Assembly (NCBI GenBank): GCA_010093995.1
Contig: ML992501.1
Span: forward strand, 1,155,047-1,219,046
Direction of reading: 5' to 3'
From: Elsinoe ampelina
Taxonomy: Eukaryota
DNA length: 64,000 bases
The position numbers and the translations under genes were made by a program. Positions 2,195 through 28,207 of the stretch are shown here, piece by piece; position 1 is the first letter of the stretch; each line of letters starts with the position of its first letter. Below the pieces are notes generated by a model, which saw only the letters and a list, made by a program, of their open reading frames with translations, had not been told where the DNA came from and searched no databases.

Positions 2195-2405
2195 TGTAAT
2201 AGAGTATCTAGATAGAGCAGGTATAATGTCTCTAAGATAGAGAAGCGATAGAGGAGAAGTATACACTATATAAATATAACAATAAATTCCTAATCTCTCT
2301 ATAGAAGGTTAGGAACTACTACTATATATACTATGTAGGATTGTAGCTAGAACAACGTATCTCTAACGTCTATCTACTAGCTATAAGTTTATAGTTCCTG
2401 TTATA
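2195..2405 (-). repeat. 3' LTR of Gypsy B
   Basis: tgtaatagag...ttcctgttata; direct repeat of 9911-10121, with visible differences being transitions. Confidence 0.95.
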
Positions 2406-2930
2406 ATTGCCTTCTTCTCTATAGGTCTATTCTTAGGCTAGTCCCTCGTTAAAACTCTCTAGTAGTAGAGAAAGAGTAGACTACCTTTGGAGCGTTATTA
2501 CGCCGTATACGGAGGTCTATATATAGGGTCTTAGCATTAGATAAGGAATGTAAAGTATAGCTCTACTCGACTTTATATATGAATTTACCTTACCTAGCAC
2601 ATGTAATAACGTTATTCTCTTATCTCTTAGCTACTATTATACTAGCTATAATAACAATTAGTAGGCTACCTTATTTCTTCTCGTATCTTTCTTCTCTTAA
2701 TTAGTATAGGAGCTTTCTATTGTCTATAATAATAGGACAATAGGACAATAGAACGCTCTAATACATATACGAGACTTCTCCCTCGTTAGAATGTCTCTTC
2801 TCTTTCTTTTAAAAACCCTTTTACTAAAGTATAGCTCTCTACTCTCTACCTTGTATTTTGTACTAATATCTCCTAGTATCTCTCTAACGTCTTATTGTCT
2901 TTTCTCCGCTATTAGGAACCTTCTTTTAAC

Positions 2931-3616
2931 ATGTCTTCTCTAGTAAGTACTACCTCTAGTAGACCTAACTATAGCTAGATCTAGTGTAAAGGTACTCCGC
3001 TATTGTCCCCTAGTTACTTTAACCCTGTTCTTATTAAGGGGAGTTCTTATATTAACTGCCTTAAGCTCTCTACTAAATATATAACATTAGACAACTCTAA
3101 CTTTACTAATAACTCTCGCTACTATAAGGAGTAGAACAACTATGCCTTCTACTAGCTCTATAGGCTCCGCTATAATAGCTATGCCTTTATAGGTCCGATG
3201 TCTATTCTATGTCGGAGTAATACTAACATTCCTAGTTTCTTAAGCGCTATAATACTAAGCTTAATACTACTAGAGTTATCTATAAGGCTATCTATGTCCG
3301 CTATTACAATAACAAAGATAAGCACTCGGCTGCTATACTCTCTAACAAGTAGCGCATTTATAGCACCTACGCTATAATAGTAGAATATATTACTACTTTT
3401 AAGGCTAAATGTATTTCCGCCGAGAAGAAGAAAAAGAGAGAAGAATTTAACTCTAATAACAATTCGCCTATAACCTATAAGAACTTCGCTGCCTTACTTA
3501 CTAGTAGCTAAAAGACTAACGAGTTATTAGCAAGGATTATTAGCGCCTAGCCTACTAGGAAGGCTCTTGCCTACGCTACTACGCCGGCCTCTAGTAGTAC
3601 TACTAGTAGAGCTTAA
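2931..3616 (+). pseudogene. Antisense spliced accessory gene 1 of Gypsy B; six-Cys zinc-cluster-like protein (RIP-damaged)
   Basis: Intact ATG at 2931. Cys-compatible codons at 3048, 3057 (intact TGC), 3120, 3150, 3159 and 3180 give C-x2-C-x20-C-x9-C-x2-C-x6-C. Intron 3189-3235 has a RIP-altered donor ataggt, TACTAAC branch and TAG acceptor. The frame continues with only TAG/TAA (RIP-type) stops; the 3' end is uncertain. Confidence 0.7.
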
Positions 3617-4018
3617 GAGATTTAGAGAGTTAGAGTAGTTACTAGTATAGTCTTCGGGTTTCTAGGTATAAGTATAGGTTCCTTAGTCGATGTAATAGCT
3701 TAGAACTGTCGGAGATAGATTTTGCCTTTTAGAGTTTATAGAGTTTTTTGCTTTCTACTTCTTCTTTTTGCCTAAGTCTCTTGTTTTATAGCCCCTAGCG
3801 GAGCTATAGCTCTTAAATTGCCCTTGCTCCTTTATTAGGGGCCTATTATCCCCTTAGGTATTATTATATTATTAAGAGTCTATTATTAAGGTAGGTATTA
3901 TTAAGGAGAGTATTATTGTTTAGATAATAGAGAAGCGATATATATATACTATCTTTTCTCTTTTTCTCCTTAATCTTCTTAGACCTCTTATTCTCTCTAT
4001 CTGCTTAACTTCTCTACT

Positions 4019-4638
4019 ATAATATTAGAATCCTATAGTATTACGACCTACTATGTCCCTACTAATTAGATTAATAACTCTAGCTATACTATGTCCTTTA
4101 AGTCTCTAGAGATTGCTAATGTTATTATAGAGGCGATACACTGTCTCGGATTTAGTAGAGACTTCTCTAGTAACTATAACTATAACTATAGTAAGAGCTC
4201 TAAGCCTAAGTTCCTATAGTTCTAGACTCCTTCCGACTATGCTATGCTAGTGCACTACTGTTAGTGCAAGCCTTGTATTTACTACTAGACCGCTATATAC
4301 CTTAACTATAAGTAGGCCTAGTCCTAACGTATTTATAATAATAATATAAGTACTTTCCTCCGCTACCGTTTCTATCGATACTTCTACACTAAATGTGTCT
4401 TTATATGTTTTTATTCTACGTCGTCGCTATAATAGCTAACCTATAGTAGTATAACGTCTCTTATACTTCGCTTATTAAGAGTCTTATTTCGACCTAGTAT
4501 GCCTTTAATACTACTATCTATATTTAGAAGTCTAATAAAGATATAATAGAGTCCCTACGTAGCAATCTTATCCTTAAGCTAGTAGAGCTAGATAAGCCTA
4601 AAGATTTAGAGAATAGAGTTAAGATAGACCTCTTATAA
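4019..4638 (+). pseudogene. Possible second antisense spliced gene of Gypsy B (Cys/His-rich N-half, acidic tail)
   Basis: Frame with several intact TGT/TGC/CAC codons and only TAG/TAA stops. Candidate intron 4346-4446 (ataagt...GCTAAC ctaTAG). The last exon de-RIPs to an acidic E/D/P-rich tail. Confidence 0.4.
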
Positions 4639-7600
4639 TTCGCTAGTGTTATATAAGAGACACGTTATTAGGCTAATATTGTACTTTTTTATAACATAGA
4701 CTTACTTTTTTTTTTAAATCTTAATCTTGTATTATTCTCTTACCTCTCTCTTTCTCTATAGCGTAAGTTTAAGCTCTTCGAGCCTTATAAGTCCCTTACT
4801 TAATATAGTATTACTTCGCTATTATACTTAGAATAAGGCTCTTCTTCTCGAAGTTCTCGATTTTACTAATAGTATTCTATAGATGCTCTATTAGCTCCTA
4901 GCTAGCTTCCTCTTTAGGATAGCCTTTCTAGAGTACCTTATAGTAAGTCTTACCTCTAATAAGGCCCTTATTAACTACCTCTTTAACTTTGTATTTTTCT
5001 TTCCCCTTAATCTCTACCGGTAGTAAAGCAATGTTATTACCTTATTAATAAGCCTTAAGGAGAGATATGTAAAAGGTTAAGTAGATCGATTTTATATATA
5101 CTAGAAGGTTAAGTTAGTATACTTAGTAACCTACTGTCTTAGCAACAGTAAATAGACCTATAAACTTCGCTACTAGCTTCTTCTTTAGCTAGAGAGACTA
5201 GAGGTTCTTAGTACTTAGTATAACTTCTTAGCCTTTCTTAAACCTTATCAGCTAGTGCTTCTTATTATAGTATACCTCCTACTACGCGATAGTGTTAAGC
5301 CTATACTACTTAAGTTCTTCTCTTATGTCTTATAGAGCCTTTACTCTTACTTCTACTACTAGTGCTTCTAGTAGTTATAGAGCTACCTTCTTCTCTATAG
5401 CGTTAGCCTTAACATCGTCGGAGAGACGTAGGACTATTCCGTAAATATAGCGAAGTAGGCTTACCCCTAGCGACGCGCTATAGGAGCTATTATAGGCAAA
5501 CTCGGCCTAATATAGCTAGTGTAGCTAGTTATCTTAGTAGAAATTAATAAACACCCTTAGGTACTATTTAATTATTTAGTTCTACTTCTCCGTAGCGTTA
5601 TTAGTTTAAGAGTAGAACACTATCGAGAGGCATCTCTAGACCTTCTATCTCTAGTAGAGAAACATCTAAAATTTAAACTTAAATAGGGTACCTCTGTCGG
5701 TGATCTAGCTTCTTAGGAACCTATAGCAACTAAGGATCTCCCTCTCTACGATGTTAGCTAACTCTTAGGTCTCTATATCTTTTCTTGCTAGAATGTATCT
5801 AACGTATTTAGACACTCTATCTACTAGCACTAAAATTAAATTAGTAACGGAGCTCTATTAGTCCTTCGCTAGAGGTAAATTAGTAATAAAGTCTATTAAC
5901 TAATACTAGAGTACTTCTCTAATAGGGGGCAATCTTAGAGCCTATATTTTACTATAGGGCTAATATTAAGGAACCTTTATTCTTTAACACTTGTTATAGT
6001 AATTTACGTATCTAGTAACGTCTATTGTTATGCCCTTCTAATAGTACTTCTACTTTAGTACGAAGAGTGTCTTTTCTATTCCGAGGTGGCCTACTATTAG
6101 ATTATTATAATTCCTATAGAGTATCTCTATAGTTAGCATTTTTATAGCTAGAATAAAGACTTTATCTTAAAATAGTAAGACACTATCGTCCTACTATCTC
6201 TAGCTCTCTCTCTTAGTAGTCTCTCTTTCTTTAGAATCGCTAAGACGCTCTAGTGTTGTCTCTACTATAGTATCTCGCCGCTATAGCCTCTTTACTAGGC
6301 TAAGTAGCCTTAGTAGTGCCTCTTTATATATATTATCTTCTTTCGTAGCTATTACGTATAGACGTCTAGGGCTAGTAAGTTCTCTACGATCTCTTTATAA
6401 TCTCTCTACTATAGTTATCTACGGGGAATAGTAAAAGGAACTACTTACCTCTAGAGGAGCGGACCTACTATCTCTACTCTCGTAGGGAGCTATTTTAGCT
6501 TCCGTATCTATGTCTAGCATCTCGCCTTAGGCTATAACACTCTCTTAGGTATCTTTAGATCTCCTAGTATACTTTACCTCGCTATGCTATCTTAGTAAGA
6601 AGTCCTCGGCAACTACTAAGTTTATATCTAGTATTTTACCTTATACGTCTTAGGTTAACTTAACCTACTTAGCTACTATTGTAGTATTAAGGAGGAGACG
6701 TCTCTCCGGCCTCTTATATAAGTCTCTTAGGACCTGTAGGTACAAGTCTACCTCGGCTTACTTGTCTCTAGTATCTAGGTCTAGCCTCCTCGATAGTCTA
6801 TTAGTAGAATTAAGCTTCTCTAGGTTATAGGTAATCTAGATATTATATTATAATAGCTCTTTACTAACGTAGGCCTATTAAGCTAAGAGCGTCTTAGTTG
6901 TTAAGAAGTATTTTAGGTTATTATAATCTATAAACATAGTAGTAGTAGAAGGAATAGAGAGGAGATACTACTACTAGTAGCGCGCTACCTCGAGGATAGT
7001 AAGTAGCTCTTAGTTATACATAAGCTAGTTTAACTCTACTCTCTATAGTTTCCGCGAATAGTACGTAATAGAGTACTATTAGACTACCTTCTCTTCGCTA
7101 TTGCTAAATAGTTACATAGTAATCCTAGAGATAGTAAATCTAGAGAAGTTAGTATATATCCTTATATTCTTACTTTTGTCGAAAAACTATAGGAGAGAAG
7201 TAGTTATAAAGCGGTCTTTAAGATATTAGAATAATTGCCTAGCACTATTAGTAAAGTAGAAAGGACCTACTTATTTTTCGTTTTTGCTTTCTATAAGTAG
7301 TTACATTATAGGTCTTATTATCTCTACGTAGCTGTTAATAAACTATTAGTAAAAGTTTATAAATCTAAGAAAGATTTAGAGTTCTTTTAGAGAAGTAGAT
7401 TCTAGCTAGTCTATAATAGCTTAAACTCTCTAGAGCTCTATTAAGACGCTCTCGGGGCCTAGAATATATTCTAGAAACTATACTTTCTTAACTTTAAAGG
7501 TGTACTTAGAAGCCTTTATAAAAAGAAGATACTTCCTAAGTTGCGCTAGAACTTCTTTAATATACCTATAGTGCTATAACAGGTCTCGGGAGTAGATAAG

Positions 7601-9910
7601 AATATTATCTATATAGACGATATAGTAGTAATTAACTAAGCTATTAAGGCATTAGCTAATATATAACTAGAAGGTAGCGGGAGTATTTATAAGGCTAAAA
7701 GGTATAACTATATATTTAAAATATCTATATCTATATTAGAACGCTATCTTCTATTCGTTGCCCCCTTTAATCTAGATATAGTAGTATACGTCCCTAAGAT
7801 CTATTTTTAAGTACACCTTAGCCCTCTAGATTCTATCGAGCATCTTAGTAATAAGGGGTAAAGGGTAGTAGTTCTTTACTAAGACGTTATTAAGACCTTA
7901 GTAGTTAACGTAGAGACGTAGCAACTTGTTAGCCTTAGGCATAAAGAGGATAGAAGCCCCTACGGGGCTAGTAGAGTAGTAAATATAGCTTAGCTTTAAA
8001 TTCTTAGCTAGGTACTCTCTAAGAGTACTTAGCTCTATCTTTATAAGGGTATAAATAGGTCCCTACGGGGGTTACTTCCCTTCGATAAGTTTAATTAAGT
8101 AGTTATATAGCGCTAGAGGGAGTATAGTAATAGCTTCCTTATTGTCGAATATATCTAAGAAGTTATAGAGCTAGCTTAGGAGCCTACTCTATAACGTTAA
8201 AATATTATCTTTATAAATTACATTTAAGAAAACTATATAGTACTATAGCTACTCTAATATTTCCTTAGTAAATTCTTCTACTGTTAGAAGTGTTATATTA
8301 ACGCTAGTAGGGCAATGTCTCTACCTCTAGCTTTACTAGTCGATATCTAGGTTAATACTAAAGAGCTACGTCTAGCCTAGTACTAAGTTATATCCCTTTA
8401 TCTCTACTAACTCGAAGCGCTATTAAATCTCCTTCGTGACGCTATAGTAGTTAGTAGCTTCTACTATAAGATAGTAGTATCCGTATAAGTGTATCTTATA
8501 CTAGTCGAGGGACTTTACCCTCGTTACGCTATTAGTGTATAGGTAAACTTCTTTCTCCTTTACGTAATAGTAGTTAATAAAACAAATATTAGCTTCTAAA
8601 TCTATAAGAGATATAGCTACGTAATTAGTAGATAGAGCTCTACCTTCCTAACTAAGGTAAATATCTATTCTTAGTTAGCTTAGTAGTAGACCTCCTTCGA
8701 ATACTCCTAGCTATATAGAGGCGAGATCTATAGCTAGAGTATCTAGTTTTTTGTCTTATTACAAGGGCAGTTAGAGTAGATATAGCTAGGTTGTCTATAC
8801 CTATAGCACTTTACCTCTAAGAGGTCGAGGCGACAGAGTATTAGAGTTATATTAACTCTAGACGTAGGGTCTTTAAACCTTCTTTTTTTCTTATTTTTGT
8901 TATTCTAGAATTTCTAGTTGCCTTCCTTTAGCTTATCTACGAAGTAGCGAGAGATATATGTCGTCTTAGAGATAGCTTAGCTTCTAAATACACTCTTAAT
9001 ATAAGTAAAGTAGAAGATAGCCTCGTCTTTGCCCCTTAGGGAGTCTTAGAGCGCTATATAGCTCTATTAATATACAGGCTTTACGCCGTTAACGAGGCGG
9101 CTTACGAACTAAGCCTTATCTATAGTAGTGTTACTAATTTCCTTAGTGTACTCTTCGAGGTATTAGGCGAACTTAGTAACTAATTAGTTCGACCTCTAAG
9201 CACTATTATAGAATAGTTAAGTGTATTTCAGGGCTCGGTTACTCTTGTCTATAATACGATCTTTAATCTATTCTTAAAAGTAGCTCTAGTTCTTAGCCTA
9301 AGGTCCTACGTTGTTAATATAGCTCTCCTATATCGTAGTAAGAGATTTATCTAAATAGCTAGCTATAAACTAGACTCGATCTTTACTAGTAAGATAGATA
9401 TACTTATAGACCCTAAAGACAGCGTAGTATAATCGAATAAATGCCTTTACGTCGGCGAGGTATATATATCTCTTTAGTTTCTCTAGTACCTCTAGCTTTT
9501 ATACTTTCTTAAGGTTAATCTAAAGGGAAAGCATCTCTAGAGAGATATCTAGATTAGGAGTTCCTCGAGAGATACTATCTTAGTATAACTAATTATTGTC
9601 GTTAGACTCCTCTTACTACTCTTATGTATTAATATAGGTCCTCTTCCGAAGGGGTCCTTCGCGCTTAATTACAAGAGCTCTCTAGATCTCTATATACTCT
9701 CTATTCTAGCGGAGTTAAGCTAGCTCTTCTTAGGTAGTACGTAGCTCCTCCTTAGATATATTAGAGAGGATAGGTTCCGATTAGGTAGCTTCTACTAAGC
9801 TAGTAGATATAGCGTCTATAGCGGATAATCTATCGGTCCTTTATTAAGCTAACTACGTTAAGACTATTAACCTAGACTATCTTAACTATAGTTTTAGGAG
9901 GAATTTAAAT

Positions 9911-10121
9911 TGTAATAGAGTATCTAGATAGAGCAGATATAATGTCTCTAAGATAGAGAAGTAATAGAGGAGAAGTATATACTATATAAATACAACGACA
10001 AATTTCTAACCTCTCTATAGAAGGTTAGGAACTACTACTATATATACTATGTAGAATTGTAGCCGGAACAATATATCTCCGACGTTTATCTACTAGCTAT
10101 AAGTTTATAGTTCCTGTTATA
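9911..10121 (-). repeat. 5' LTR of Gypsy B
   Basis: Direct repeat of 2195-2405, followed by TSD tctag. Confidence 0.95.
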
Positions 10122-11408
10122 TCTAGTCCTAGAAGCTATAAGGTGTAGAACTAAACTATACTACCTACAATAAAGAGCTTCTTACTATTATAGAAGTAGC
10201 GTAGCACTAGCGCTAGTACCTACTTAGCGCTACTACCTCGATTAAAGTCCTCTCTAACTATAATAACCTTAGGTATTTCCTAACTACTAAGAAGCTTTTA
10301 TAGCGCTAGGCCTACTACGCCGAGGTACTAGCGTAGTTTAATATTATTATCTAGTACTATAGTAGAAAGACTAACCTAGCTAATAGCCTATTACGTAGGC
10401 CTAACTACTATAAGCATAAAGAAGATATATAGAAAGAGTACTATATATTAGTCCCTCTCTTAGAGTAAGCATTATAAACGCAAAGTAAAGGAGTTATACT
10501 TATATCTATTATAGATAAGAAACCTAAGGCTAGTAGGGTCTAGGAAGATAGTAATAAAGCTAGTATAGCTTATATGCCTTAAACTACTCTCTAACGTAAC
10601 GCGCTTATATAATTCTAACGTACCTCTAGAATAGCGCCTATAAGTCTACCTATTACCTTAGGAGTGCTATAGCTATACTAAGAAGAGTTAGAGCCTCTAG
10701 AGAAAGAAGAGTAGCGCCTAGAGAGCACTTATATAAATCTTCCTCTAAGCCTAACTAGCAATATTAAATTAGAACGATATACACCTACCTTAGCATTCTA
10801 GGACGTACCGCTACTCGCCTAGGAAATAATAGAGAGCTAAGAGCATAAAGATAGTATAACGCCTATATAACTCCGGGACACCTCTAGTAGAAAGCCCGCT
10901 ATAATTTTAAACTAGAGTTAGTAGATTATACGCCTCTATACTACGTAAGTACTAGTAGATAAGACTACGTATATCTCTTCTACTCCTATGTTACTCTAGG
11001 ACCTTATCTATATAGTATAGTAAAGAGACGCCTTTACTTATAGCAAGAAATAGAAACTTCTAAAAGAGAGAACCTTAACTAGTAATAGTACTACTCCTAA
11101 GTAGAGCCTATCTAGCAATAGCTTACTCTAGAACGAAGATAAGGTATATATCCTAGAAGAAACTACCTTAAGAGTAGAGCTTATATAGCGTAATTATAAT
11201 AACTCCTTAGGGAGTTACTTTAGCTATATAAAGACCTACCTTAATATAAGGAGAAAGTACTAGTAGCTAGGTATATCTATCGCTATAAAGGTATATATTA
11301 AGCGCTATAATAGCTACTAAAGGCATAAGGTAACGTAGTATAAGCCTTATAGCCTCCTATAACCCTTGCTAATCCCGCTTATACTTAAGGCCTTATAACA
11401 CTAGTTAC

Positions 11409-11610
11409 TGCTAAGAATATAGCTCTCTCTAGATAATTAGGCCCGAAGGTCACATGACTACAGGTTATGTAATGCTAAGTCCTAGGGATTCATAGCTATT
11501 CTTTCCTTCGGTAGATAGACTCCTTAATTAATTAACTCGTCTATCACCTAACTAGTGTGCGGATTAGTTCTATATAATACTCTACCCCTAAACGTGCCTT
11601 CTACTTAACA
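11409..11610 (+). repeat. 5' LTR of Copia C
   Basis: tgctaagaat...ctacttaaca; direct repeat of 16526-16727. Confidence 0.95.
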
Positions 11611-14600
11611 GGTTATAAGCCTAGAGCTTATAGCACAAGTATAGGATTATATATATAGTAGTTGGCCTACTACTTAAACAAAACGGAAGCGGAATTATAA
11701 TATCCCTACCGCCTTATAGTCAACTATCTAGATACCTTTAGTAAGCCTAGTAGACTATACTATAAGTCGTGAAAGATTGTACTACTTAGGACAACAAGTA
11801 GGAATAGCACTTCTATTTAGTATAGGTTTAACTCCTATAATTGTTCTACTATAGCTGCTGTTTATTAGCTAGATTAACTAAACATATTCGATTTATTAAC
11901 TTCCTCTAAGGCCTAGCTAGCCTTATAGACAACTATTAACTAGAGGTTATTAACTAAACTCGACCTTTATCTATTTATTTAATTCTCTTCTCCTTAGAGA
12001 ACTTAATTCCTAACTATAGAAGATTAGTCCTTATCTTTAAGAAGACTAGTTATTAAGCTTAATAGACTTAACTAGAGAGAATAGTTCTACTAGATAGAAA
12101 TATACCTTATAAGTAAGGATGCCTTCTAGACTATTCGTAGTTAGACTACTCCTTTAGTAACACTATTATCCGATAATACCTCTAGCTCCGTTTTAGTCCT
12201 ACCTATTAAGTCAAAGGACTAGTAAAAGGCTAATACAACTACTAAGTACTAGGTTGTCTAGTGTATCTTATAAGATAACAAAGAGTTACTATATAAGGAA
12301 GAGCTTATATTAGAATATTAGAGATTACTTAAGTCTAAGTACAAAACAAACCTTAAGGCAAGCGTAAGGGAGCTAGTTATCTAATTTGTAAACTATAAGA
12401 TAGATAAGTAGGACACTATTAATAAAGCTTAGTCCTACCTTACTAGCCTAGGAAGATAGATCGCTATTGTCTACCTAGATAAGGGTTATTAGAGGGCAGT
12501 AGAGAGATTATAGTAGCTTCTCTCTTCTCTTCCTAACGACTATAGGTTTACAAGGCAAGTAATTAAAGCAAGAGGATTAACTAATATAGATAAGGTCCTC
12601 CTTATTCTTAAGGAGGAAGAGAAACGCCTTAGTAAGCATAAGATTGCTATGTTTACTAGGGGGAGACTAAATTAAGGACCTAGTAGAAGTACAAGCTATA
12701 TATATATCCTCTACTTATAGGCTAGTTACACTATAACTAGATACTCTTAACTTTAAAGAGTATAGAGGCATATTTAGCCTTCCTATAGGATTACTAAGAG
12801 CCTACTAAGGAGGAGAAGATCTCTATTAGCTTCTAATAATCTAATTACCCTTGTTAGGCATCTCACTAAGAAGGTTAATAGACTAGAAGCAGCATCTAAG
12901 TTAAAGAAAGGTAAAGCCTTTACTACTACTAAAGGCCGGTCCGAACCTTTCTCTCTAATCTTAACTCTACTACCTAAAGTTCTATTAAGTAAAGAGGAAC
13001 TTAAGACTATAGGCTCTACATTAGAGGTATAAGGTAAGCTTCTATATTATTAGTAGATACTTAACTCTAGAGTATCTAACTATATAATAGATAAGCTAAC
13101 TCTCTTTAGGGGCCTATTAAGTAAGATACGCACTTAATAGATCTAGGTTAGGGGGGGTTACCTTTAGTTATAGTTAATAGGAACTGCTATTATTAAGACT
13201 AAGAAGGGAGATAAGATAAAGGTATAGGCTCTTTATGTACCTAATCTTAGTATTAATTTAGTCTCCTATCGTAAGCTATGTATAGATTTAGGAGTTTCTA
13301 GAGTTCTTAATTTAAATTCTTTTCTTGTTTTTAATTTATAAAAGCAGCTACTACTTAAAGCTAGAATTCGAGGGGGGGTATATATTATCTAATTCCTCTT
13401 TAAGCAGTTAGCTAATTAAAAGCTATATTCTAGATCTAAGCCCGGCTTAATTCTAGATTTAGCTAATTAGGACATAGTATTCCTTACTACTTAGCTAGTA
13501 ATTATATCACACACTAAGTATATACATCTAACCTAGGATAAGCAATATAAGGATCTTATTAATTTAAGACCCGACAACTCTAATATAGAGTACTAACTCT
13601 AGCATAGGAGATTTGCTTACCTTAGAGTTAAGAAGCTTAGAGATCTTTATAAGGTTATAACCCTTAAGAAGCTTATTAATTTAAACCATGATTTATTAAT
13701 CCTATATAAGGTCTGTTTCTTAACAAAGATAAGAAACAGAAGAGGCAAAACTTTATAGAGAAGACTAGAGGTTCTTTAGCTTATTTATACTAACATCTAT
13801 AGCCTAATTAAAGTAAGTAGGAAAGGATTTAGATACTTCCTAGAGCTTATAGATAGCTATTTAAGAATGACATAGATTATACCACTTAAGACAAGAGATA
13901 AAGCTCTATAGAGGCTTATTAAGTAGAAGCTAAGGGTTAAGAAGGAAAGTAATGCCAAAGTTAAGGTCACTAGATTAGACAATACTAGTAAGCTTAACAA
14001 GATCCTAAAGTAGTAGAAGCGCTAAGAAGACATCTATTACACAACTACTAAGCTATATAATTTAATCTAGAATAGACTAGTAGAGAAAGGCATCTAAACC
14101 TTAGAGAATAGTATAAGAGCAATACTTAAGGACTTAAAGATGCTAAATAAGTTCTAGCCTAAAGTAGTTTAGGTAGATGCATATCTAAGGAACAGGACAG
14201 TAACTAGACCTATAATCAATAATAAGCAAGTTACACTAATTAAGGCCTATATAGGCATTAAGCTATTAGTTAATTACATTAGAGTCTAGGGCTATAAGGT
14301 ATACACCTATATAAACCTAAAGTCCCTTCCTATATATAGAAGAAAAGATAAGCTTATAGACAGAGGGAGAGTAGGAGTATTCCTTAGCTATGTAGATAGA
14401 ACTAACAGGATATATAAGATATAGGCACCTAATAGGAAGGCAGTAATTGTATTACTAAATGTTAAGTTCTCTAAATTTAAGAAAGGTAGGAATATTAATC
14501 TTAGTATTAAGATTAGCACTACGAGCAATTAAGCACTAGTTAGGAGACTAATTAGTAGACTAACCTAGATCCGAGCCCGGCTTAATCCTAAGGTAGACTA

Positions 14601-16525
14601 ATTAGATTAGCCTATTTAGCAAGAAGTGCCTATAGGGAGAATCTTCTTATATATTAAGATCCTAAGGGTTAACCCTATTAACCTTATAGAATTCTAACGT
14701 AGAGAAGAGCTAATAGTTTAATCTATATTACCTAATTATATAGGTTAATCACTTAAGAGATTAAGAGATAAAGAATCTAATAATAAAGAGCCTAAGGTAA
14801 AGTATTATAGAGCATTTATTACTAAGTATATTAATTGGCAAGATAAGGTTAATAAGATTGCTATAATAGCCTCTATTAAGTAATATGTCCTAATTCTAAG
14901 AGACTACTATAAGGCTGTTACTAATCTAGTTTAGGGAAGTAAGTGGCAGGAAGTAATTAATATAGAGCTTAATACTCTAGGATTAAATAACACATAGGAA
15001 GAGGTTATCCCTCTAAAAGGATTAAACTTAGTAATATCTAAGTAGGTCTTTAATGTTAAATACAACACAGATAGCTCTATTAAGAAGTTCAAGGCTAGAC
15101 TTATTACTAGAGGCTTCTTATAGAAGTATAGTATTAACTATAAAGACACATTTACACTAATAGTTAGAGTAGATACACTAAGACTGTTCTTTACCATCGT
15201 GTATATACTTGACCTTAAATGTCATTAGGTGGATATTAATAATACCTTTATAGAATTATTCCTTAGGGAAGTAATTTATATAAGGCTACTACCTAGACTT
15301 AAGGTCTAACCTAGTATTGCCTTCTATATTCTTAGAAGCTTATATAGACTTAAGTAAGCTACTAGAGATTAGAATTAGTACTACATCTCTAAGCTTTTAA
15401 AGCTAGGCTTTACTTAGAGTAAAGTAGACCCCTATCTTCTTATATACTATAATAAGAAGATTATTTTCTTAGTTTATGTTAATAACATACTATTTATAGT
15501 ACAAAGCAAAGAGAACATCTAGTAGTTTAAGCAAGAGCTTAGTAGAATCTTTAAGATTAAGGATCTTAGTAAGGTTAGTAAAGTTCTTAGAGTTAAAGTT
15601 ATAAGGGACAGACAACAAGGAACCTTAAGGCTTAACTAGACCTACTATGTGAATGATATACTATAGAGGCTTAATATGACCTCTAACAAGGCTACTCTAA
15701 CAAAGCAGCTAATAGACAATAAGCTCCCTTAGAGAGCTTAGACTAAAGATGTAAGGTTTAGTAGAACTAAGTACTTATATGCTATTAGAAGCTAGATGTA
15801 CCTTAGTACTCTAACAAGACTAGATACTACCTTTGCCTTAGGAAGGCTTAGTTAGTTTATAGTAGATCTAATAGACAGCTATACTATTAAGATAAAGAAG
15901 ATATTAAGATATATTAGATTAACTAAAGATCTTAGTATAGTGTTTAGGAGGAATAGTAATAAGACTCTTAAGGGATATTCTAATTTAGACTATGCCTTAG
16001 ACAAGACAGATAGAGTCTCTATTCTTAGATACGTCTTTATGCTTATAGGTGGTCCTATTAGCTAGATAAGTAGGAAGTAGAAGTCTGTTTTAACCTCTAC
16101 TATAGAGGCTAAATATATAGTAATATACTCTTATATAAAGAGATTACAGTTCCTATCTTAGTTACTAAGAGACATAGACTATTATAAGATAGTTAGTTAA
16201 TCACCTTAGAAACTAACTATAAAGGAGTCTTAGAAAGCAATAATAAGATTACCCTTTACTACTAAGATTAATAGTAATAACTAGGTAGCTCTTTTACTTA
16301 TAAAGGAGCTATATACTTATAAAAGGGCAAAACACATTAATGTTGCTTACTACTACGTTAGGAGGCTATAGAGGGACTAGAGGATACAGGTTAAGTTTAT
16401 AAGGACAGCAGACATAGTAGCTAATAGGTTAACTAAGCTATTATAAGGTTAGAACTTTACGAGGTTTATAAAGTAACTTAGCTTATTATTAACCTAATAG
16501 CTTATCTATAGGAGCTAAGTAGAAG

Positions 16526-16727
16526 TGCTAAGAATATAGCTCTCTCTAGATAATTAGGCCCGAAGGTCATATAACTACAGGTTATATAATGCTAAGTCCT
16601 AGGGATTTATAGCTGTTCTTTCCTTCGGTAGATAGACTCCTTAATCAATTAACTCGTCTATCACCTAACTAGTATACGGATTAGTTCTATACAATACTCT
16701 ACCCCTAAACGTGCCTTCTACTTAATA
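16526..16727 (+). repeat. 3' LTR of Copia C
   Basis: tgctaagaat...ctacttaata (terminal CA RIP-mutated), followed by TSD gttac. Confidence 0.95.
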
Positions 16728-18000
16728 GTTACTTAATTTTATTACTAGCTTACTCCTAGTAGAGCTCTAGCCTAGCGTCGTTATAGACGCAATTATCGTA
16801 TATATCTATTACTTATCTAAGTTTAGTATCTATATACTAACGTTAACTAAGCTTAACGCTAGAGACTTTACTAATCTATTTAAAATAGATATTATAATAT
16901 TATTTAGAACGCTAAAGACGCTAGTCTTAGATAGAGAGTCTATCTTTATAAGTAAATTCTAGAGTACGCTATACTAGTACTAGAAGGCGTAACGTAAGCT
17001 TAGTACTAGTTTCTATCTATAGATAGACAACTAAACTAAAAGGCAAAACTAGACGCTAGAGTAGTACCTATACTACTTTATCGACTATTACTAGATAGAC
17101 TAGCTATACTAGGTTAAGTAGGCGCAATTCGTGTATAATAATACGTATTAAGCGTTACTATACACTACGCTAGTATAGTTCTTATTTACGTAGGAGATAT
17201 GCCTACCTAACAATATTAAGGCGCTAGCGCCGCCTAGCTACGCGCTAGCGTATAACCTGTCGGTCGATAACTAAGTATAATCTATTACCGAAACACGTGT
17301 AGAGCTTGCCTAACACCTATATAAAGTATAGAAAGACTAAGCGCTAGCCTATAATAGAGATTAATAAGCAAAAGTCTTCTATAATAGCGACAAGGTTATA
17401 CTTAGCACTAAGAACCTTCGTAGCGCTAGACCTAGCTATAAGCTATTAGCTAAGTATATTAACCCGTTTATAATTATATAACAAATTAGTACGTAGGTAT
17501 ATAAGCTACACTTACTAAACAAAATAAAGCTAATCTATAACGTCTTTAACGTTACGCTACTAGAGCTATATAGGCGTAGTAAGGGCGTATACCTACTGCC
17601 TCTAGAGGTAAAAGGGCAAGAAGAATATATTATTAAATATATCCTTAGCAAGGGCTATACTAGCACTCTAAAGGCGCTATACTACCTAGTAAAGTAGTAG
17701 GGTTACTCTATAGAAGAAAGCATATAGGAGCTAGTAAAAAACCTTATAAACGCTAAGGAATTACTATATAAATATAAGGTAGCTTAGCGTAAGTATAGCG
17801 CTAGCTAAACACTCTAGATATACTTAGGATTAACAAGTTAAAGGTATAAATTTTAAAGTAAAGAGCACCTAGGCGTAGCGCTAGGTTAGCTCGGGGTATT
17901 ATTAGCTTACGTAGGGAAAACGCTAGCGTAGTAAAGACTATAGAATTATACTAAAGCGAAGGGGGCGTAGTATAGGTATAGCGCCCTAGCTTTCCCTATC

Positions 18001-18871
18001 TTAACTATCTATATTATTCACCTTAGTCTTATTCTTATTATTCTTCTTAACACTATTAATATGCCTAGTTAGTACTCTCGTAGTATTATTAATTACCTAT
18101 ATAGTAGTAGCTTACTTATTCTTAGTAACTACCTATAAAGAAGTTAGTATAACTTAGGCGTTATAGGGGCGCACTTCTAGACTTATATAACTAGCTAAAG
18201 CCTTAAGTATAAAGCTAGTATTACTAATTATACCTAGGCGTAGCACCTTCGCTAGCTACTTAGTGTCGACTTTAGAGGCAAAGGGCGTAGTAATAGCGCT
18301 ATTATAGCGTAAAGAAGTTACACTATTACTATTACTCTTATTAACTACTTTACTCTTGCCCTTAGCGTTAGACTTGCTCTACGTACGCTTAGCACTAGCC
18401 TTCTTATATACATAGTTAGCATAGGTAGTAATCTAGCGCTTTAGGAGAATAATGTCCTTCTTAGGAGTAGTAGCGTCGTTATAGAGTAGTATATACGTAG
18501 TAAAGTATTTATCCTAGAGCTTCTTAGTAGTAACTTAATCCTTAGAGTTAAGCTTAGTAGGCTACTAAGGTTAGTATAAAGTAGGCGTAGTATAGGTGTA
18601 GAGTATACCTAGTAGTAGTGTTTATTCCTATAACTATAACGATTATAGCGGGTAGCTTTAGCCTTAGTAATCTAGTAGAGAAGATCCTTAATAGAGAGTA
18701 TACTATCTTTAAGCTAGAGGTACTTATTAATAGTAATAGTATAGTATAAGCATAGTATAGAGTACTAGTTCTAGTTAGTAAAATTGCTCTTATAAGCTCT
18801 ATAAAAGGTTAGTGCCGGCGTAGTATAAGTACTATATATAATACTTACTCCTTAGGAACTTTAGGAGCTAT
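18001..18871 (-). pseudogene. Antisense spliced accessory gene of Gypsy A; six-Cys zinc-cluster-like protein with acidic tail (RIP-damaged)
   Basis: Start ATA (from ATG) GCT CCT AAA = MAPK at 18871. Introns: 18848-18799 (GTAAGT...CTAAC...TAG), 18608 to 18562 or 18565 (GTATAC...CTAAC...TAG), and a third ending at 18133 (TACTAAC ttctttaTAG). Exon 2 de-RIPs to C-x2-C-x21-C-x9-C-x2-C-x6-C, with the first Cys an intact TGC. Confidence 0.7.
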
Positions 18872-19528
18872 AGTTATTAAAGTATATAAGCGTATAGGAG
18901 GTAAGCTAGCGTAGAGCTAGAATAACAAAAGGAAAAAAAATTTACTATATAGGTGCTACGCTAGGTTAGTAAACAAACAACTAAATAGATAAGCTCGATA
19001 GCTAGATCTATAGTAGCGTAGACTTAGTATATACGCTAAGCCTCCCCTACTAGCCCTTAGGCTAGTAAGACCTAGTCTATACTATATAGTACCTAAAATA
19101 GATTACTAGTATAGTATTAGACCTACGTAAGTATAGAGCTAGTATTAAGTAGAATACTTACGTAAAGGAAGTATTATAAAGGAGAAAAGAAGAAGAGAAG
19201 GAGAAGAGAAAGATATATACCTAGCTCTAAGCTAAGACTAATCTAGAGAATAATAGGTAGTAGTATACAATAATAGGTAGATTCTTATATATAAAAATAA
19301 TAACGTAAGAGCGCTATATTCTATATATAAAGATTATACTATTATTACTATATCTAGTATACGAAGAATAGTATAGGCTACTATAGGCATACTATATATA
19401 CGAAGAGTACGCTACGCCTAAGAAGCGCTAGTAAGACGCTCTTTTCTAGTTTTCTCCTATACTAGATTTTCTAGGTTTTATTAAGGCTTATAGGTGTAAG
19501 GGCATACCTCTCGAAGGGGAAGAATAAT

Positions 19529-19726
19529 TATAAGAACTAACGTAGTAAGTACGCTATGCTAGCTTACTCTAGAGATACTATTCTCTATAGGAGAATAAAA
19601 CACTCCTTGCCTATAGAATAGATAGAGTAGAGATTAGTCTTACAATAATTAAGAGTACACTAGTATAATACCTGTTCTACTCCTATATACTTGTCTTTCT
19701 AGCTCTAATATTCTATCTTCGTTATA
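19529..19726 (+). repeat. 3' LTR of Gypsy A
   Basis: 198 bp, tataagaact...cgttata (TG..CA RIP-mutated); preceded by PPT; reverse complement of 20661-20858. Confidence 0.92.
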
Positions 19727-20858
19727 GTTCTACTCTAAACGAGATAGATATACTAGAAGTTCTACCTTAATTAGAGATAGGTTCCCCTAATAGAGTACTT
19801 TCGAGCGTAGCTCTAGCGTAGTATAGATAATAAGCTATATATAGTAGGCGTCGTCTAGGAGTAGTACTATCTTAATATAGAACTTATAACTATCGAGGAA
19901 CATATAGAAATTAGTAATTAACTATTCTCTATACTAGCGTAACGTAAAGAACTTTACTATGTAGCTATTACTACAGTTTTTAGAACTCTAGACTTAGTCC
20001 TAAAGCTAGGACTATATTAGGCTCTATAAGGGTATAACGCTAGCGCTCTTAGCGTATAAGTTCTAATTATAGCTAAGCTAACCTTTTAAGTAGCTAGTAG
20101 CTATATAGCACTAAGTAACTTCTTTAAAGTAGATATTTAGTACTATCTTAAAGACGTTATTATATATATATATAAATTCCTTAACTCTTACTATAATAGT
20201 AAACTCTAAGGCCTTAGAGTAGTATAAGTTTAGCATATACTCTCTTATAATTTATAGATTTATTAGATAGATATCGTTAGGTTATATATTGTCGAAATAA
20301 CTACGTAGCACTAGCGCTATAACTAGGAAGCAACTACTAAGTATATTCTTAAGCTAAGTAATACAAGTAAGAAGCGCTTTATATATAGTATTATTTTCTA
20401 TGTCGGCTATACTTCCTATAGAAGCTATATTAGCGTAGTAGAGTCTTAGCGCTAGCTCTTCTCTAGCCTAGCGATCTTTAATAGGAGTTGTCTCTAGAGT
20501 TATAGCTAATTCGGTAAATGTCTTACTAATAGCTAAGCTATTAGAGAGTTGTCTATACTAGTACTACTCTAGCGGTAGTTAGTCGTTTCGCTAGCGCTAA
20601 GTATAGAGTGCTATCTTGTCTATATAGCTCTATTTAATAGGATATAAGAGAGATTAGAATTATAACAAAGATAGAATATTAGAGCTAGAAAGATAAGTAT
20701 ATAGGAGTAGAATAGGTGTTATACTAGTGTACCCTCGATTGTTATAAGACTAATCTCTACTCTATCTATTCTATAGATAAGAAGTGTTTTATTCTTCTAC
20801 GGAGAATAGTATCTCTAGAGTAAGCTAGTATAGCGTACTTACTATATTAGTTCTTATA
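19727..20858 (-). mobile_element. 5' fragment (LTR + leader/gag) of Gypsy A', a second copy of family A in opposite orientation, interrupted by A
   Basis: 20661-20858 is the reverse complement of the A LTR. 19727-20036 is the reverse complement of window bases 1-310 (same length, transition differences). Confidence 0.9.
20661..20858 (-). repeat. 5' LTR of Gypsy A'
   Basis: 198-bp inverted copy of 19529-19726. Confidence 0.92.
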
Positions 20859-21517
20859 CTAATACTAAGGAACTTATAAAGGTTAGAGAGCGCTTATTAG
20901 TCTATTATCTAGATAATTAGTACAACGCTAATAAGACTAGCCTATTCTATATAATAATACTAGATTAGTTACTAGCCTTATAACCTCTCCCTAGTACTAA
21001 GCGCTATAAAAAGTAAATCTCTATACTTTTTACTTATAACACCTCTAGTACTTATAAGCTAAAGCCTTAGATAATTAGCTATGCCTTAAGGCCTTATTGT
21101 TTTAAGGCAGCTAGTATTAATATTAAGTACTAGAACATGTTCTAGCGAGTAAATAAGACTACTTAGATAACTAGTACTATCTTTAAGCAATATCTAAGGT
21201 AGTTAAATAAGTAAGTTTATAGTAGAAAGGTAAGTAGTAAACTCTTTATATACTAATATAAGTATATACTAATTTTGTACTTAGATAGCGCTTCTCCTTA
21301 ATAACTTTTTAGTATATAAGTACGCTATTAAGGCTATTTAATATAAACTTTATAACATTAAGGTAATCTAGTTACTAGCTAATTTAATAAGTAAATACTA
21401 ACTACTTAATTAAGGCATTATCTACTACTTTAAGGCCTACTATTAGAAGCGCTAGCTTACTTATATACTAGAGAAGATTAAGCTCTTACGCGATTCTCTA
21501 TTAACTATTAATATCCT

Positions 21518-21704
21518 TATTAAAGCCTTGTATTAAAGCTACGTATGTCGTAATATAGAGAACGCCTATCTAACCGAATAGTCCGTTAGTAGTAGAACTA
21601 ATTACTATTAAGCTCTAGGCATAAGCGCCGTATAGGATATTTAAGTATATTACATAAGTAGGACTAGCCGCTACTAAGTGCTGCTCTAATACTAAGCTCT
21701 TATA
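21518..21704 (-). repeat. 3' LTR of Gypsy D
   Basis: Direct repeat of 28021-28207; adjacent to PPT. Confidence 0.93.
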
Positions 21705-22118
21705 ATTGCCTTCTCCTCTAGGAGAGCTGTCCTTAGCTCTCGACTAGAAGTATATAACGTATAGTGTTATTCGGAGGTAATATAGACGTAAGGTAGTTAA
21801 GGCATTTTTGTAAAGGCCTTATATATGTCTCGTATAATGTCTAGTAGTAGTAGTCCTAGGAATCTAGTTCCTAGAGAGGCGTTTATCTAGTCGCTATAGC
21901 GCTAAAGCTAATCGGCAGTAATAATATTACTTTTCTTAGAATTCCTAGTAGTATTATAGGAGACATATACCTTACGCTAGCGGCTATAATAAAGATATAG
22001 TGCACTAGAGGTTAGTCTATATTATCTCGTTGTTTCTCCTTATATTCTTCTTTTCTACCTAAAATATATTTATATTTTGTTAATCTCTTACTATATAAGT
22101 GTACTACCTATAACTATT

Positions 22119-22914
22119 ATATTATCTAACTCCGGCCCCTCCGTAGCTAATACTCGTAGTGTAAGGTCTACTAGCGTCTAGGGAGCTATTACTACTAGCG
22201 CCGACTCTATAACTCTCTTACTTCCTAAAGAGAAGGCCGATACCTATACTAGGTATACTAATAGCGTTGCTGAGAGTAAGCTAATAGAGCTCTTATAAGG
22301 GACGTAACTAATTTATAGTAGGTTATATTTATACTAGAGGCAACTTTAGTATCTTCTTCTATTGTAAGTACGAATACTACGCCTATAGTAAGTATATATA
22401 TAAGCCGCTCCTATCTATCCTATATAACTTATATATCGACGCCTTTAACATAGTTACTAAGCTTAAGGCCCCCGACTAGGCTAGCATTACTGTAGCTAAG
22501 AAGTATATATACGCTATAGCCTATAAGAACGTTCCTAAGGTTAAGAAGTTTAAGACTATACTTAAGGTATACTACACTAATAAGAATAAGGTTGTTAGCG
22601 AGGTCTTGACTCCTTATATAGGGCCTATAGGCGACTTACTTAGTAGTGTTATACTCGAGCGTAAGAAGGTTAAGGAACTATAGAAGATTAGGTATAGCCT
22701 TTATAGCTTAATTATTATTAACAAGGAGGTAAGTTAGACTATACTCTATATACGTTATAAACATAGCTAATAGGTTTAGATAGTGTATAACTCTAGTAGT
22801 TCTACTACTAAAATCGACTATGTTATAGCTAGTAAGTAGCTTATAGCCCCTATAGTACCTATAGGGGAGAATCTTAGTATAGAGGTAAATAAGGAGAATA
22901 GTAAGGATAAGTAG
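22119..22914 (+). pseudogene. Antisense spliced accessory gene of Gypsy D; six-Cys zinc-cluster-like protein with acidic tail (RIP-damaged)
   Basis: Introns 22276 to 22318/22321 (GTAAGC...CTAAT...TAG) and 22729-22779 (GTAAGT...GCTAAT...TTTAG). The middle exon of about 135 codons has only two TAG stops. De-RIP reading TCTRC-x9-C-x12-CEYCARGKHVCEPLP; the last exon ends in an acidic run before TAG 22912-22914. Confidence 0.7.
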
Positions 22915-25900
22915 GCATATACGAGACAAGTACGCGTCCTTAGCGCTATATCTATAATAAGGCCTTACGTAGAGTATAATAGAGTATAGAGTTTAGGTTA
23001 ATACCTGTAATAGTAGCGTAAGTATAGCGCTTTATTAAAATATATTTCCCTAGGTAAGGAGTCTACTCTTTGCTCTATTTATATGTTTATATAATCTATC
23101 TACTTATATGCTCTATAATCTACACCTTTAGTAACCTTTCTTAGCTACTCTTAGCTACGACTTATATATAGTAATTAGCTCTCTTATATTTATGTAATTC
23201 TCTTTAGGTTCCTAGCTATTAAACTTAATAGGCTAGTCCTTTTACTTTACTAAGTAGAATACCTTACTCTTTGTAGTTCTTCTACCTAGAATCTCCTCTA
23301 CTATCTACTTATCTACTTTGTTAGTAAGAGGTATACTCTCTTCTAGCTCCTTACTAGCTCTACCTATCTATAGTTTAAGAAGAGATATATAAAAGACATT
23401 ATAGATGCAATACTAACTTAGTAAAGCTAGGCGATACACCTACGATCTAATTGTGTTAAGTATGCGAAATAGGCTAAGGAATTGTAGTTCTATCTTCTTC
23501 TTTAGTATAGGTAGCTATAAGTTCTTAGCTAAGAGTAGTACTAAGTTACCTACGCTATATACCTTTAGTATATACTTCCTATTATAGTACTTAGCCTAGT
23601 AAGTAGAAGCCTCTTTCTATTACTCTATTAGCTTTATATATGTATCTCGTAAGTGTTACGCTAACTCTACTACTACTAGTACTTTTCTCTCTAAAGTCTT
23701 ATTCTAAGACTTAATAGCTATTACCTCTAACTCTAGATAGTAGCTATATATTATTTAGAAGAGGCTTATACGTAGCGTAGTATAAACGCTATTATTGCTT
23801 ATAAATTCCGCTTGTAATAGACGTTTAGCCTAGTTGTTCTATAGCTCTATATAGTAGCACCTTAGGTACTGTTCTAACGTCTAGTTTTACTGCTTAGTTT
23901 AACCGTCTATCTATAGGTAAAAGGCTATACTAAGCCTACGCTTTATACGCGTTTTGTAATAGAATTTACTCTAGAACTAGCTAGTAAAGACCGATCCTCG
24001 ATTGCTTACTATTCCTCTTAGGACACTATAATAGTGAATAATATAGTTATATAGGATCTCTACTAGCTCTATAGACGTATACTTCTTAGTAGTAGAGACA
24101 TATAGTAACATCTTAGTATAATAGTCTATAATTACTAGTACTATATTATAGACGCTACTACCTTACTTACTTAGTAGTAAGTTAGTAATAAAATCTATTA
24201 TAATTTCTTACTATAGGTAGTCTAGTATTAGTAGCGTACGTAGCTCGCTATAGAGGCAATAGTAGCGCGCCTTGTACTTCTAGCAAACTTAGTATAACTA
24301 TATATAGTTATTAATATCTTTTCTTATAGTTAGCTAGAAGTATTTCTATAATAGGAGCTTAAGCGTCTTATTCTTACTAAAGTAACTAGCCTATTCGCCG
24401 TTATAATATATATATAGTACCTACGCCTTAAGCGTACTATTATTTAGAATAACTAGTAACTCTTTATAGAAGAGAAGATTATCTTATATATTCTATAGCG
24501 CTCTACTCTTGTCTCTACTACTTTCCGCTTGCGAATGTAGCTTTATAATCTTAGAGTCTTATCCTTATAGTAGCTCTACTACTAACATTAGGTTAGTAGA
24601 TAGATCTTTAAAGGGATCCTCTCTTATAGTTACTATAACTACGACTTACTAGGTCGTTATAAGCCTCTAGAAGTTCTTAGAAGAGAAGTCGCTACTATAC
24701 GGCGTATAGGCGGCCTAGGCCTATCCTAGAGTAGCCTCGTATATAGCGTAGATATGTCTAATAAGCGGAGTAGCTTCCTTAACATTAGTAGTCTAGTCCT
24801 ATATACGAAGCTTATTCTAAAGAGTAGAAAGGAGATATAACACCTCTTACTCTTCTACTATATAGTTAGAGCGCCTCGAGGGCGTATTAGCTAGGTTCCT
24901 CGTGCCTAGCTAATACTCTATTATAAAGTTAAAAGTAGCAAGGAAGGTAGCCTAGTAAGCTTATTAGCCGTTTAGCTATTTTAGCTTTATAAATCCTTAG
25001 AGATTGTTATAGTTAGTAAGTACTTAAATTATATATAAGACACCTTCGAGGTAGTATTACTATTGCTTAAATACATATACAATTACTAATAGCTCTTAGT
25101 CGTACATCTCGTAATTGTACTTAGCTAGGATAAACTTCTTTAACTAAAAGGCTATTAGGTGCTAAGCACTGTCGAATAGTTAGGATAGAATTACTACCGC
25201 TATAAACTTTAATATATCGCTTTTAATACGTAGAGGCAGCGTAGAATTATAGTAGTAGAGGATAGAGGCACGCGTAAATATGTCTCTAATGTCCTTAAAT
25301 ACCTACTATTCGCTTATGCCCTACACGAAAGAGCTATACTTATAACCTTTTACTAAGTCTTTAAGGAGGCTAGAGAGGAAAGTAATAATCTTAGAGTAGT
25401 ACTATATAAAGCAACGATAGAAGTTTATAAAGCTAGTAAACTACTAGACCTTATAATAACTCTTTAGCCTTAGCTAATTCTTAATTATAGTTACTCTACT
25501 AGGATCTATTAAGACGCCTATAGTAGAGATAATATAGCTAAGAAATTCTATCTCCTTAGTAAAGAATTTACATTTCTTAAGGTTAATATATAAAGTAAAC
25601 TTCTGTAGCTTTACTAGAATCTTATAAATGTAATATATATAGTTCTCTCTTAAATTGCTATAGATAAGAATATTATCGAGGTAGATAATATAGATAGTGT
25701 TAACTAGCCTACCTAGCGCCTTATTAATATACACTTAGAAGGTAGCTAGGGCGTTAGTTAATCTAAAAGGCATAACTAAGTACTTAAAATAGCTATAGCA
25801 CATACGGAATATAGTCTTCTACTTATTGCTACGCTTAATAGAGATTCTATAATAGGCATCCTTAAGATCTAGCTTCGAGAACTACTAGGCTTGCCCGAGC

Positions 25901-28020: not shown

Positions 28021-28207
28021 TATTAAAGCCTTATATTAAAGCTATATATGTCGTAATATAGAGAACACCTATCTAACTAAATAGTCTATTAGTAGTAGAA
28101 CTAATTGCTATTAAGCCCCTAGTATAAGCGCTACGTAGGATATTTAAGTATATTACGTAAGCGGGACTAGCTACTACTAAGTACTACTCTAATACTAAGC
28201 CCTTATA
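28021..28207 (-). repeat. 5' LTR of Gypsy D
   Basis: Direct repeat of 21518-21704. Confidence 0.93.

Follow-up and report, generated by a model that had tools for sequence, protein, structure and literature searches.

We analysed a 64-kb stretch of the Elsinoe ampelina genome (64,000 nt; NCBI GenBank assembly GCA_010093995.1, contig ML992501.1, forward-strand positions 1,155,047–1,219,046; hereafter the window), of which bases 1–28300 (hereafter the block) are a nest of long terminal repeat (LTR) retrotransposons altered by repeat-induced point mutation (RIP). The nest consists of the Gypsy chromoviruses B, A and D and one Copia element, and it was resolved by repeat and self-BLAST searches together with Pfam scans of read-through translations. 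The G+C content of the block is 31–35%, compared with 52–57% in the remainder of the window, and its RIP indices (TpA/ApT 2.09; (CpA+TpG)/(ApC+GpT) 0.23) differ from those outside it (0.60 and 1.25, respectively). In all three Gypsy elements the tail between the chromodomain and the 3' LTR contains one stretch on the strand opposite to gag-pol that scores as coding, and we place an antisense gene there in each case, i.e. at 22116–22914 (+) in D, at 18845–17950 (-) in A and at 3030–3718 (+) in B. The gene of D is anchored by an intact homologue from another Elsinoe species; the genes of A and B are likely to be real, and their relationship to the gene of D is weighed below.

Element B (2195–10121, minus strand) is a Ty3/Gypsy chromovirus with LTRs of 211 bp (3' LTR 2195–2405, 5' LTR 9911–10121; 92% identity), flanked on both sides by the 5-bp duplication TCTAG. 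Its gag-pol runs in a single frame from 9910 down to ~4841 and matches the Pfam families RVT_1 (E 2.2e-14), RT_RNaseH, Integrase_H2C2 and SH3_Tf2-1. The set of features that defines a Ty3/Gypsy chromovirus (reverse transcriptase, RNase H, integrase and chromodomain in one pol, between LTRs) is present in B with all its domains, the Chromo match being weak (aa 1640–1690, ending near 4841; E 0.024, below the Pfam cut-off). Element D, also a Ty3/Gypsy chromovirus (21518–28210, minus strand; 190-bp LTRs at 21518–21707 (3') and 28021–28210 (5'), 86% identity), has a Chromo match at 23161–23304 that just passes (E 1e-05; 25.8 bits at a Pfam cut-off of 25.1) and matches SH3_Tf2-1 as well. Element A begins outside the window and is cut by B and the Copia element into the pieces 1–2194, 10122–11408 and 16729–19736, the last of which (plus strand) holds the SH3 domain (SH3_Tf2-1, E 5.1e-12) and a chromodomain-like end up to ~17790, and closes with a 3' LTR of ~205 bp (~19530–19736). 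For A, Pfam reported no Chromo match, and its chromodomain was placed by alignment to B and D alone. An earlier note on this DNA, made from its letters only, had proposed three Gypsy families with unrelated LTRs and long regions behind the chromodomain, and this description holds: self-BLAST gave no match between the LTRs of different families, the integrase–chromodomain parts are mutually 34–36% identical, and the tails from chromodomain to 3' LTR measure ~2.4 kb in B, ~1.7 kb in A and ~1.45 kb in D.

The antisense gene of D consists of an exon 1 at 22116–22275 (+), whose start codon is not fixed and which carries the first two positions of a six-Cys motif as TAT..TAT (Cys1-x2-Cys2), a 43-nt intron at 22276–22318 (GTAAGC..ACTAAT..TAG) lying between Cys2 and Cys3, and an exon 2 at 22319–22914 with Cys3 to Cys6 as TAT/TAC, a GNFS motif, a predicted helical middle and a Lys/Asn/Asp/Glu tail. 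Exon 2 contains seven stops, which we read through as X; the gene is convergent with pol, and its terminal stop codon (22912–22914) lies ~250 nt from the chromodomain. When the exon 2 read-through was compared with 1.84 billion representative proteins, three sequences passed E 0.001. Two of them, P0010 and P0012, are repeat proteins and were judged spurious, leaving as sole intact relative a protein of 213 aa, 'Hypothetical protein D9617_77g092410 [Elsinoe fawcettii]' (P0011; E 9.6e-6), which is 35% identical to D over 134 aa. A RIP-aware alignment of the spliced D gene with P0011 reaches z=27 against codon shuffles. Residues 31–67 of P0011 read C-x2-C-x9-C-x12-C-x2-C-x6-C, and all six of these Cys align to TAT or TAC codons in D, where Tyr makes up 25 of 251 residues (chance ~1e-6); TGY to TAY is the canonical RIP change in TpG context. 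Likewise, a Gln of P0011 is aligned to a TAG stop in D. The homology also extends over the intron: residues 1–43 of P0011 align to the exon 1 frame of D with a score of 50.5 (null 25.9 +/- 4.9; P=0.002), compared with P=0.06 and 0.4 for the remaining two frames, and the similarity thus switches frame across the 43 nt at 22276–22318. Judged by the homology to an intact protein, the frame change across an antisense intron and the codon statistics given below, D carries a real intron-split accessory gene antisense to the element. The spacing C-x2-C-x9-C-x12-C-x2-C-x6-C that had been assigned to D beforehand is found exactly in P0011, but in no single frame of D, where splicing yields C-x2-C-x10-C-x12-C-x2-C-x6-C.

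To score coding strands we took the RIP-mutated gag-pol frames of B, D and the Copia element as the training set for a codon log-odds model, which on held-out elements picked the true frame in 37 of 49 windows of eighty codons (chance 1 in 6). True sense windows have a mean of 0.110 per codon, and all of 600 windows from non-coding frames score 0.136 or less. The second antisense exons score 0.185 per codon in D (22321–22911, +), 0.164 in A (18564–17950, -) and 0.075 in B (3236–3718, +), and in all three cases the codon-aligned frame of the opposite strand stays below (0.103, 0.006 and 0.004, respectively). The Cys/Tyr-rich first exons are short and score between 0.00 and 0.09. For A and B, the frames that score as coding are those reached through their introns. 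In three of three elements the codons of antisense exon 2 are in register with those of the prolonged pol frame, and the pol frame after the chromodomain is unusually free of stops (a 104-aa open reading frame (ORF) at 3179–3493 (-) in B and a 94-aa ORF at 22708–22992 (-) in D).

In A, the Cys/Tyr-rich exon 1 (18609–18845, minus strand; motif at 18836–18720; 0.081 per codon) is followed by a phase-0 intron of 44 nt (18565–18608; GTATAC..ACTAAC..TAG) and by exon 2 (17950–18564), which ends in a Lys/Asn-rich tail; the frames on either side of the intron agree with those of the codon model. A second, canonical intron-like string of 50 nt (GTAAGT..ACTAAC..TAG, 18848–18799 (-)) overlaps the first C-x2-C of A and, if spliced, would remove it, which makes the 5' limit of this gene uncertain. 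The string lies one codon before the third Cys of A; the intron of D lies four codons before the third Cys of D. On the sense strand of A a polypurine run is found at 19170–19210 (+), ~320 nt before the 3' LTR and not against it.

In B, the Cys/Tyr-rich exon 1 (3030–3188, plus strand) contains NFT and a C-x2-C-x6-C triad in Tyr codons within 3048–3182, with a codon score of 0.089 (53 codons, two stops) that is weak when taken alone. The following intron of 47 nt (3189–3235; donor ATAGGT, branch point ACTAAC, acceptor TAG) shifts the reading from coordinate modulo 3 = 0 to coordinate modulo 3 = 2, and the frame thus predicted downstream is the one favoured by the codon model: exon 2 (3236–3718) is the best of six frames across 3216–3500. 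The tail of B exceeds the other two in length by ~1 kb; between 3720 and 4840 it shows mixed weak coding signals on both strands (a plus-strand frame at 4476–4650; the pol frame at 3666–4300), and this part matches nothing else within the window.

A, B and D certainly have the same layout, in which a first exon rich in Cys/Tyr is followed by a short intron and then by a longer second exon. The antisense genes of A and B are likely to be real, as indicated by codon statistics, by frames that the introns join and by a short motif in common. Several observations on which the earlier note relied hold, some of them in altered form. The Cys/Tyr strings of B and A stand exactly where it had put them (3048–3182 (+) and 18752–18615 (-)), and its introns do join the frames in A (18608–18565) and B. 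The Cys registers it read from these strings are probably wrong, however; its register for A starts at the fourth Cys, and in the register of the shared motif A reads C-x2-C-x10-C-x13-C-x2-C-x6-C. As to the acidic tails ascribed to A and D, P0011 does end in a Gly/Glu run followed by Asp, but the tails of A and D are at present Lys/Asn-rich, containing few Asp/Glu (K/N/D/E 14/30 and 11/30, respectively), and become acidic only once G>A changes are reversed. Other arguments lost their weight. Frames broken only by RIP-type stops are not distinctive, as nearly all stops in every frame of the block are TAA or TAG; the six-Cys pattern in its loose form, with Tyr counted as Cys, occurs 52 times in the six frames of the 28.3 kb; and there are 26 intron-like strings of the form GT..CTRAY..YAG. 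Thus none of these features carries the claim alone.

A more specific link is provided by a short motif, [CY]x1-8 NF[ST] x4-13 [CY]x2[CY]x6[CY], which in six frames of the block matches exactly three loci: 22324–22401 (+) in D, 3078–3173 (+) in B and 18803–18720 (-) in A, all of them in the antisense tails. A Markov null predicts 0.085 loci, none of 200 simulations reached three, and the block as a whole contains 12 NF[S/T] tripeptides. In other Gypsy-bearing contigs, mostly AT-rich, the motif is found twice in 969 kb. A narrower pattern, derived from D and P0011 alone with a tolerance of +/-2, finds D and A (null 0.015 loci per block in 400 simulations; also twice in 969 kb). Throughout A, B and D the motif Cys are encoded as Tyr codons, save for one TGC each in A and B.

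Against a common family stand a number of results that have to be set beside this motif. In RIP-aware alignments neither A nor B resembles D or P0011 significantly (z -0.7 to 0.6; for P0011 specifically, 0.4 and 0.6). A and B align with each other at z=3.1 (P=0.01), but this alignment leaves the motifs unregistered and local composition may explain it. Six-frame blastp among the three tails gave weak compositional matches and nothing clear. The spacers of the motif were loosened after A and B had been seen, B fits the loose form only and is not found by the narrower pattern, its exon 2 has a merely modest codon score, and its present donor is not GT, needing one G>A reversal to become so. Pfam searches of the antisense read-throughs of the tails found nothing, a word-indexed protein search with exon 2 of A gave no match, and when the block was scanned by RIP-aware Smith-Waterman alignment, with P0011 or D as query, D alone stood out. 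A likeness seen by eye between the end of exon 2 of B and residues 150–183 of P0011 was not significant. We consider that A probably belongs to the family of D and P0011, and that B possibly does.

The intact protein itself proved difficult to classify, which likewise tempers the interpretation. Neither whole P0011 nor its 51-aa Cys region alone has a Pfam family, P0011 matches no sequence of solved structure, and its AlphaFold2 model has a mean pLDDT of 41.5, with values <50 in the Cys region, and gives no usable fold; this low-confidence model suggests helices at 72–86, 94–126 and 148–171. One intact homologue was found, and it is known here as a protein sequence. A word-indexed protein search with whole P0011 and with residues 28–172 (E up to 10) returned P0011 itself only. 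Its neighbours in the ESM Atlas are unnamed Ascomycota clusters of 157 and 63 members (score 0.91), which we take as a lead only. A metagenome scan with the P0011/D alignment produced 588 pattern matches, none of them confirmed. Among 80 metagenome contigs with related integrases, none holds a P0011-like gene (tblastn, E up to 1) or a match to the exons of A, B or D (E up to 0.01); most of these contigs are AT-rich, and so are most of their tails, with closed frames.

The explanation that we favour, and consider fairly probable, is that the tails contain RIP-killed copies of an accessory gene carried by the retrotransposons themselves, located between pol and the 3' LTR, antisense to the element and of the same layout in A, B and D. 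All three copies in the window are dead. In its functional form the gene would lie on the strand opposite to gag-pol and be interrupted by one or more short fungal introns, which persist through retrotransposition since the genomic RNA has the opposite sense. The product of D is predicted to have ~250 aa. Its N-terminus would form a six-Cys module (C-x2-C-x9/10-C-x12-C-x2-C-x6-C) with the conserved GNFS and a last triad containing basic residues, its central region would be helical and in part basic, and its C-terminus would be an Asp/Glu tail; it would be of one family with the Elsinoe fawcettii protein, with A and B as probable distant members. The Cys may bind zinc, and the protein may act in the nucleus on nucleic acid or chromatin so as to favour the element's own expression or integration, e.g. 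in the manner of a small activator whose head binds metal and whose tail is acidic. Expression could start from a promoter inside the tail or in the 3' LTR. We infer from the layout (a metal-binding-type head with a basic last triad, helices and an acidic tail) a resemblance to small activators. A bolder version would make it a 'mini-Gal4' family, its members combining a six-Cys head that binds zinc, a helix for dimerisation and an acidic tail for activation, which several unrelated chromovirus lineages of ascomycetes have exchanged or independently kept in antisense orientation, and which binds the element's own LTR or tail and activates it, or blocks heterochromatin- or RIP-linked silencing, as a fungal counterpart of retroviral Tat or HBZ; to this we attach little credence. 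The earlier claim of an antisense accessory gene stands for D, where homology, intron and codons agree, and is likely, though not proven, for A and B.

The tails can also be explained in other ways. It may be that only D has a six-Cys gene and that the tails of A and B hold unrelated antisense genes or coding-like noise, with Cys/Tyr motifs that arose by chance in Tyr-rich, RIP-mutated DNA. The non-significant alignments of A and B, the 52 chance occurrences of the loose six-Cys pattern, the 26 intron-like strings and the post hoc fit of B are what such a situation would produce. We nevertheless regard it as unlikely, given that the NF[ST]-anchored motif is confined within the block to the three antisense tails, that A fits a pattern fixed from D and P0011, with its null of 0.015, and that the exons past both motifs score as coding in the frame predicted by the introns. 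Alternatively, an ancestor of D might once have captured a cellular gene by transduction, in which case P0011 would be an ordinary Elsinoe host gene and no conserved module would exist. P0011 is annotated merely as a hypothetical protein whose genomic context was not seen, the word-indexed search found no further homologues, and no related gene was found in 80 other Gypsy loci, all of which suits a single capture; yet three families with ~35% identical pol genes agree in the position, orientation and layout of the gene, the tail is covered by many diverged contigs just as pol is (see below), and the Atlas clusters of 63–157 Ascomycota members suggest, as a lead only, a multi-copy family. We therefore rate such a capture as quite improbable.

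Two further possibilities concern the strand and the kind of product, and both appear very remote to us. If the true coding strand were the element's own, the tail would prolong pol or hold a third sense ORF, with the antisense frames as a shadow of it; the open pol frame behind the chromodomain in B and D, the codon alignment of the antisense exon with the pol frame in all three elements and the 0.103 per codon of the sense frame of D would then be accounted for. The antisense frame scores higher in each of the three elements, however, and among wrong frames the codon-aligned opposite strand generally scores best (mean -0.027, maximum 0.129). Moreover, the 43-nt antisense GT..AG insert would put a sense ORF out of frame, whereas the homology to P0011 continues across it, and the six conserved Cys and the Asp/Glu tail make sense on the antisense strand only. 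The open sense frame past the chromodomain is probably a shadow of the antisense gene. As to the product, the transcript rather than a protein might matter, with double-stranded RNA or small RNAs regulating the element and the ORF being incidental. Botrytis Gypsy elements yield small RNAs, and a review of plant antisense ORFs raises this possibility (PMC7264820). The protein-level conservation between D and a protein of another fungus, with the Cys positions kept, argues instead for selection on a protein.

As a kind, antisense genes situated between pol and the 3' LTR are not new, and the earlier note had left open whether the gene had been described. The review lists them for the plant elements Grande, RIRE2, Retand and PvRetro13 and for Boty of Botrytis cinerea and Sclerotinia sclerotiorum, with functions that are unknown and some products that are nuclear (PMC7264820). 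The tails described here share with brtn of Boty the location of an extra gene in a fungal Gypsy element, behind pol, ahead of the 3' LTR and on the other strand; this comparison is by location and strand, and the protein searches with P0011 returned nothing named brtn. The brtn antisense gene of Boty is reportedly the subject of Zhao et al. 2011 (Virology 417:248). Here, three unrelated families in one genome carry an antisense gene. The plant aORF-3R genes (GENE23 of Grande, RIRE2, ORF4 of Retand, ORF2 of PvRetro13) have the same position and orientation but belong to non-chromovirus lineages and, compared by description, differ in that the accessible text of the review mentions neither a six-Cys module nor an acidic tail. 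Literature searches, supplements not covered, led to citations of brtn and to plant reviews, and to no printed account of an antisense gene with six Cys and an acidic tail that several Gypsy families of fungi have in common.

Comparable cases outside transposons are HBZ of HTLV-1 and ASP of HIV-1, minus-strand genes whose reading starts at the 3' end of the provirus; antisense genes of retroviruses are also treated in the review. HTLV-1 HBZ is a bZIP protein and a nuclear regulator. They have no sequence relation to the present gene, which is known from sequence alone. Closer in layout are the Gal4-type Zn2Cys6 proteins (PF00172; consensus C-x2-C-x6-C-x5-12-C-x2-C-x6-8-C), of which P0011 looks like a miniature with its six Cys, basic C-x2-C-x6-C triad, helical region and acidic C-terminus. 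The zinc-cluster class proposed at the outset is nonetheless a resemblance only. The spacings of P0011 (x2, x9, x12, x2, x6) and of spliced D (x2, x10, x12, x2, x6) depart from the consensus by a first triad that is too long, x9 rather than x6 in P0011; in B the first triad could be x6, but its linker would be ~24. The Zn_clus profile gave no match at E up to 10 to P0011 or its 51-aa Cys region, and none to the read-through exons of the window, so that, as far as profile searches tell, P0011 is not a member of the Pfam Zn2Cys6 family. One C4 site (C-x2-C-x22-C-x2-C) that leaves two Cys unused would be as likely as a binuclear cluster.

To our knowledge, the accessory genes that LTR retrotransposons carry are seldom annotated, and we know of none with a known function. 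An intact relative with a metal-binding-type module and an acidic tail provides a concrete protein for testing. That such genes occur in three unrelated Gypsy families suggests an exchange of modules among families of elements, and some accessory genes of retrotransposons can be listed in fungal proteomes as hypothetical proteins. In annotation, the long 'non-coding' tails of fungal chromoviruses deserve an intron-tolerant search of their opposite strand.

The tails also occur outside the copies in the window. Contigs of a DNA run (X1) were placed on positions 2931–22914 at 80% likeness, their depth giving no copy number: 14,038 contigs cover 30 of 30 bins, tails included, and differ from the window at 1,380 transition places as opposed to 47 others, nearly all of RIP type. 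Coverage and the dominance of transitions together indicate that A, B and D are multi-copy families with RIP-type divergence. The tabulated differences cover 40 of 1,427 places, and no Cys codon is among those 40. Three further runs, presumed to be RNA, contributed 0, 1 and 0 contigs, which carries no information on expression. Contigs of the same run connect 11401–11405 straight to 16726–16732, and copies of A without the Copia insert thus exist in the genome. The Copia element itself (11409–16728, plus strand) has LTRs of 203 bp with 95% identity, matches RVT_2 (E 2.1e-25) and is flanked within A by the 5-bp duplication GTTAC. Directly after the 3' LTR of A lies an inverted, truncated 5' fragment of A (LTR plus ~900 bp; 19727–20866): bases 1–310 match 20036–19727 at 91%, and the LTRs 19521–19736 and 20866–20651 match at 89%. 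At 28300 the AT-rich, RIP-mutated DNA switches abruptly to DNA of 52–57% G+C with ordinary genes (28300–64000), among them a flavin amine oxidase (29993–31495), an arylsulfotransferase-like gene (56452–58209), an MFS transporter (59932–61371) and three ORFs of 636–886 aa without a Pfam family.

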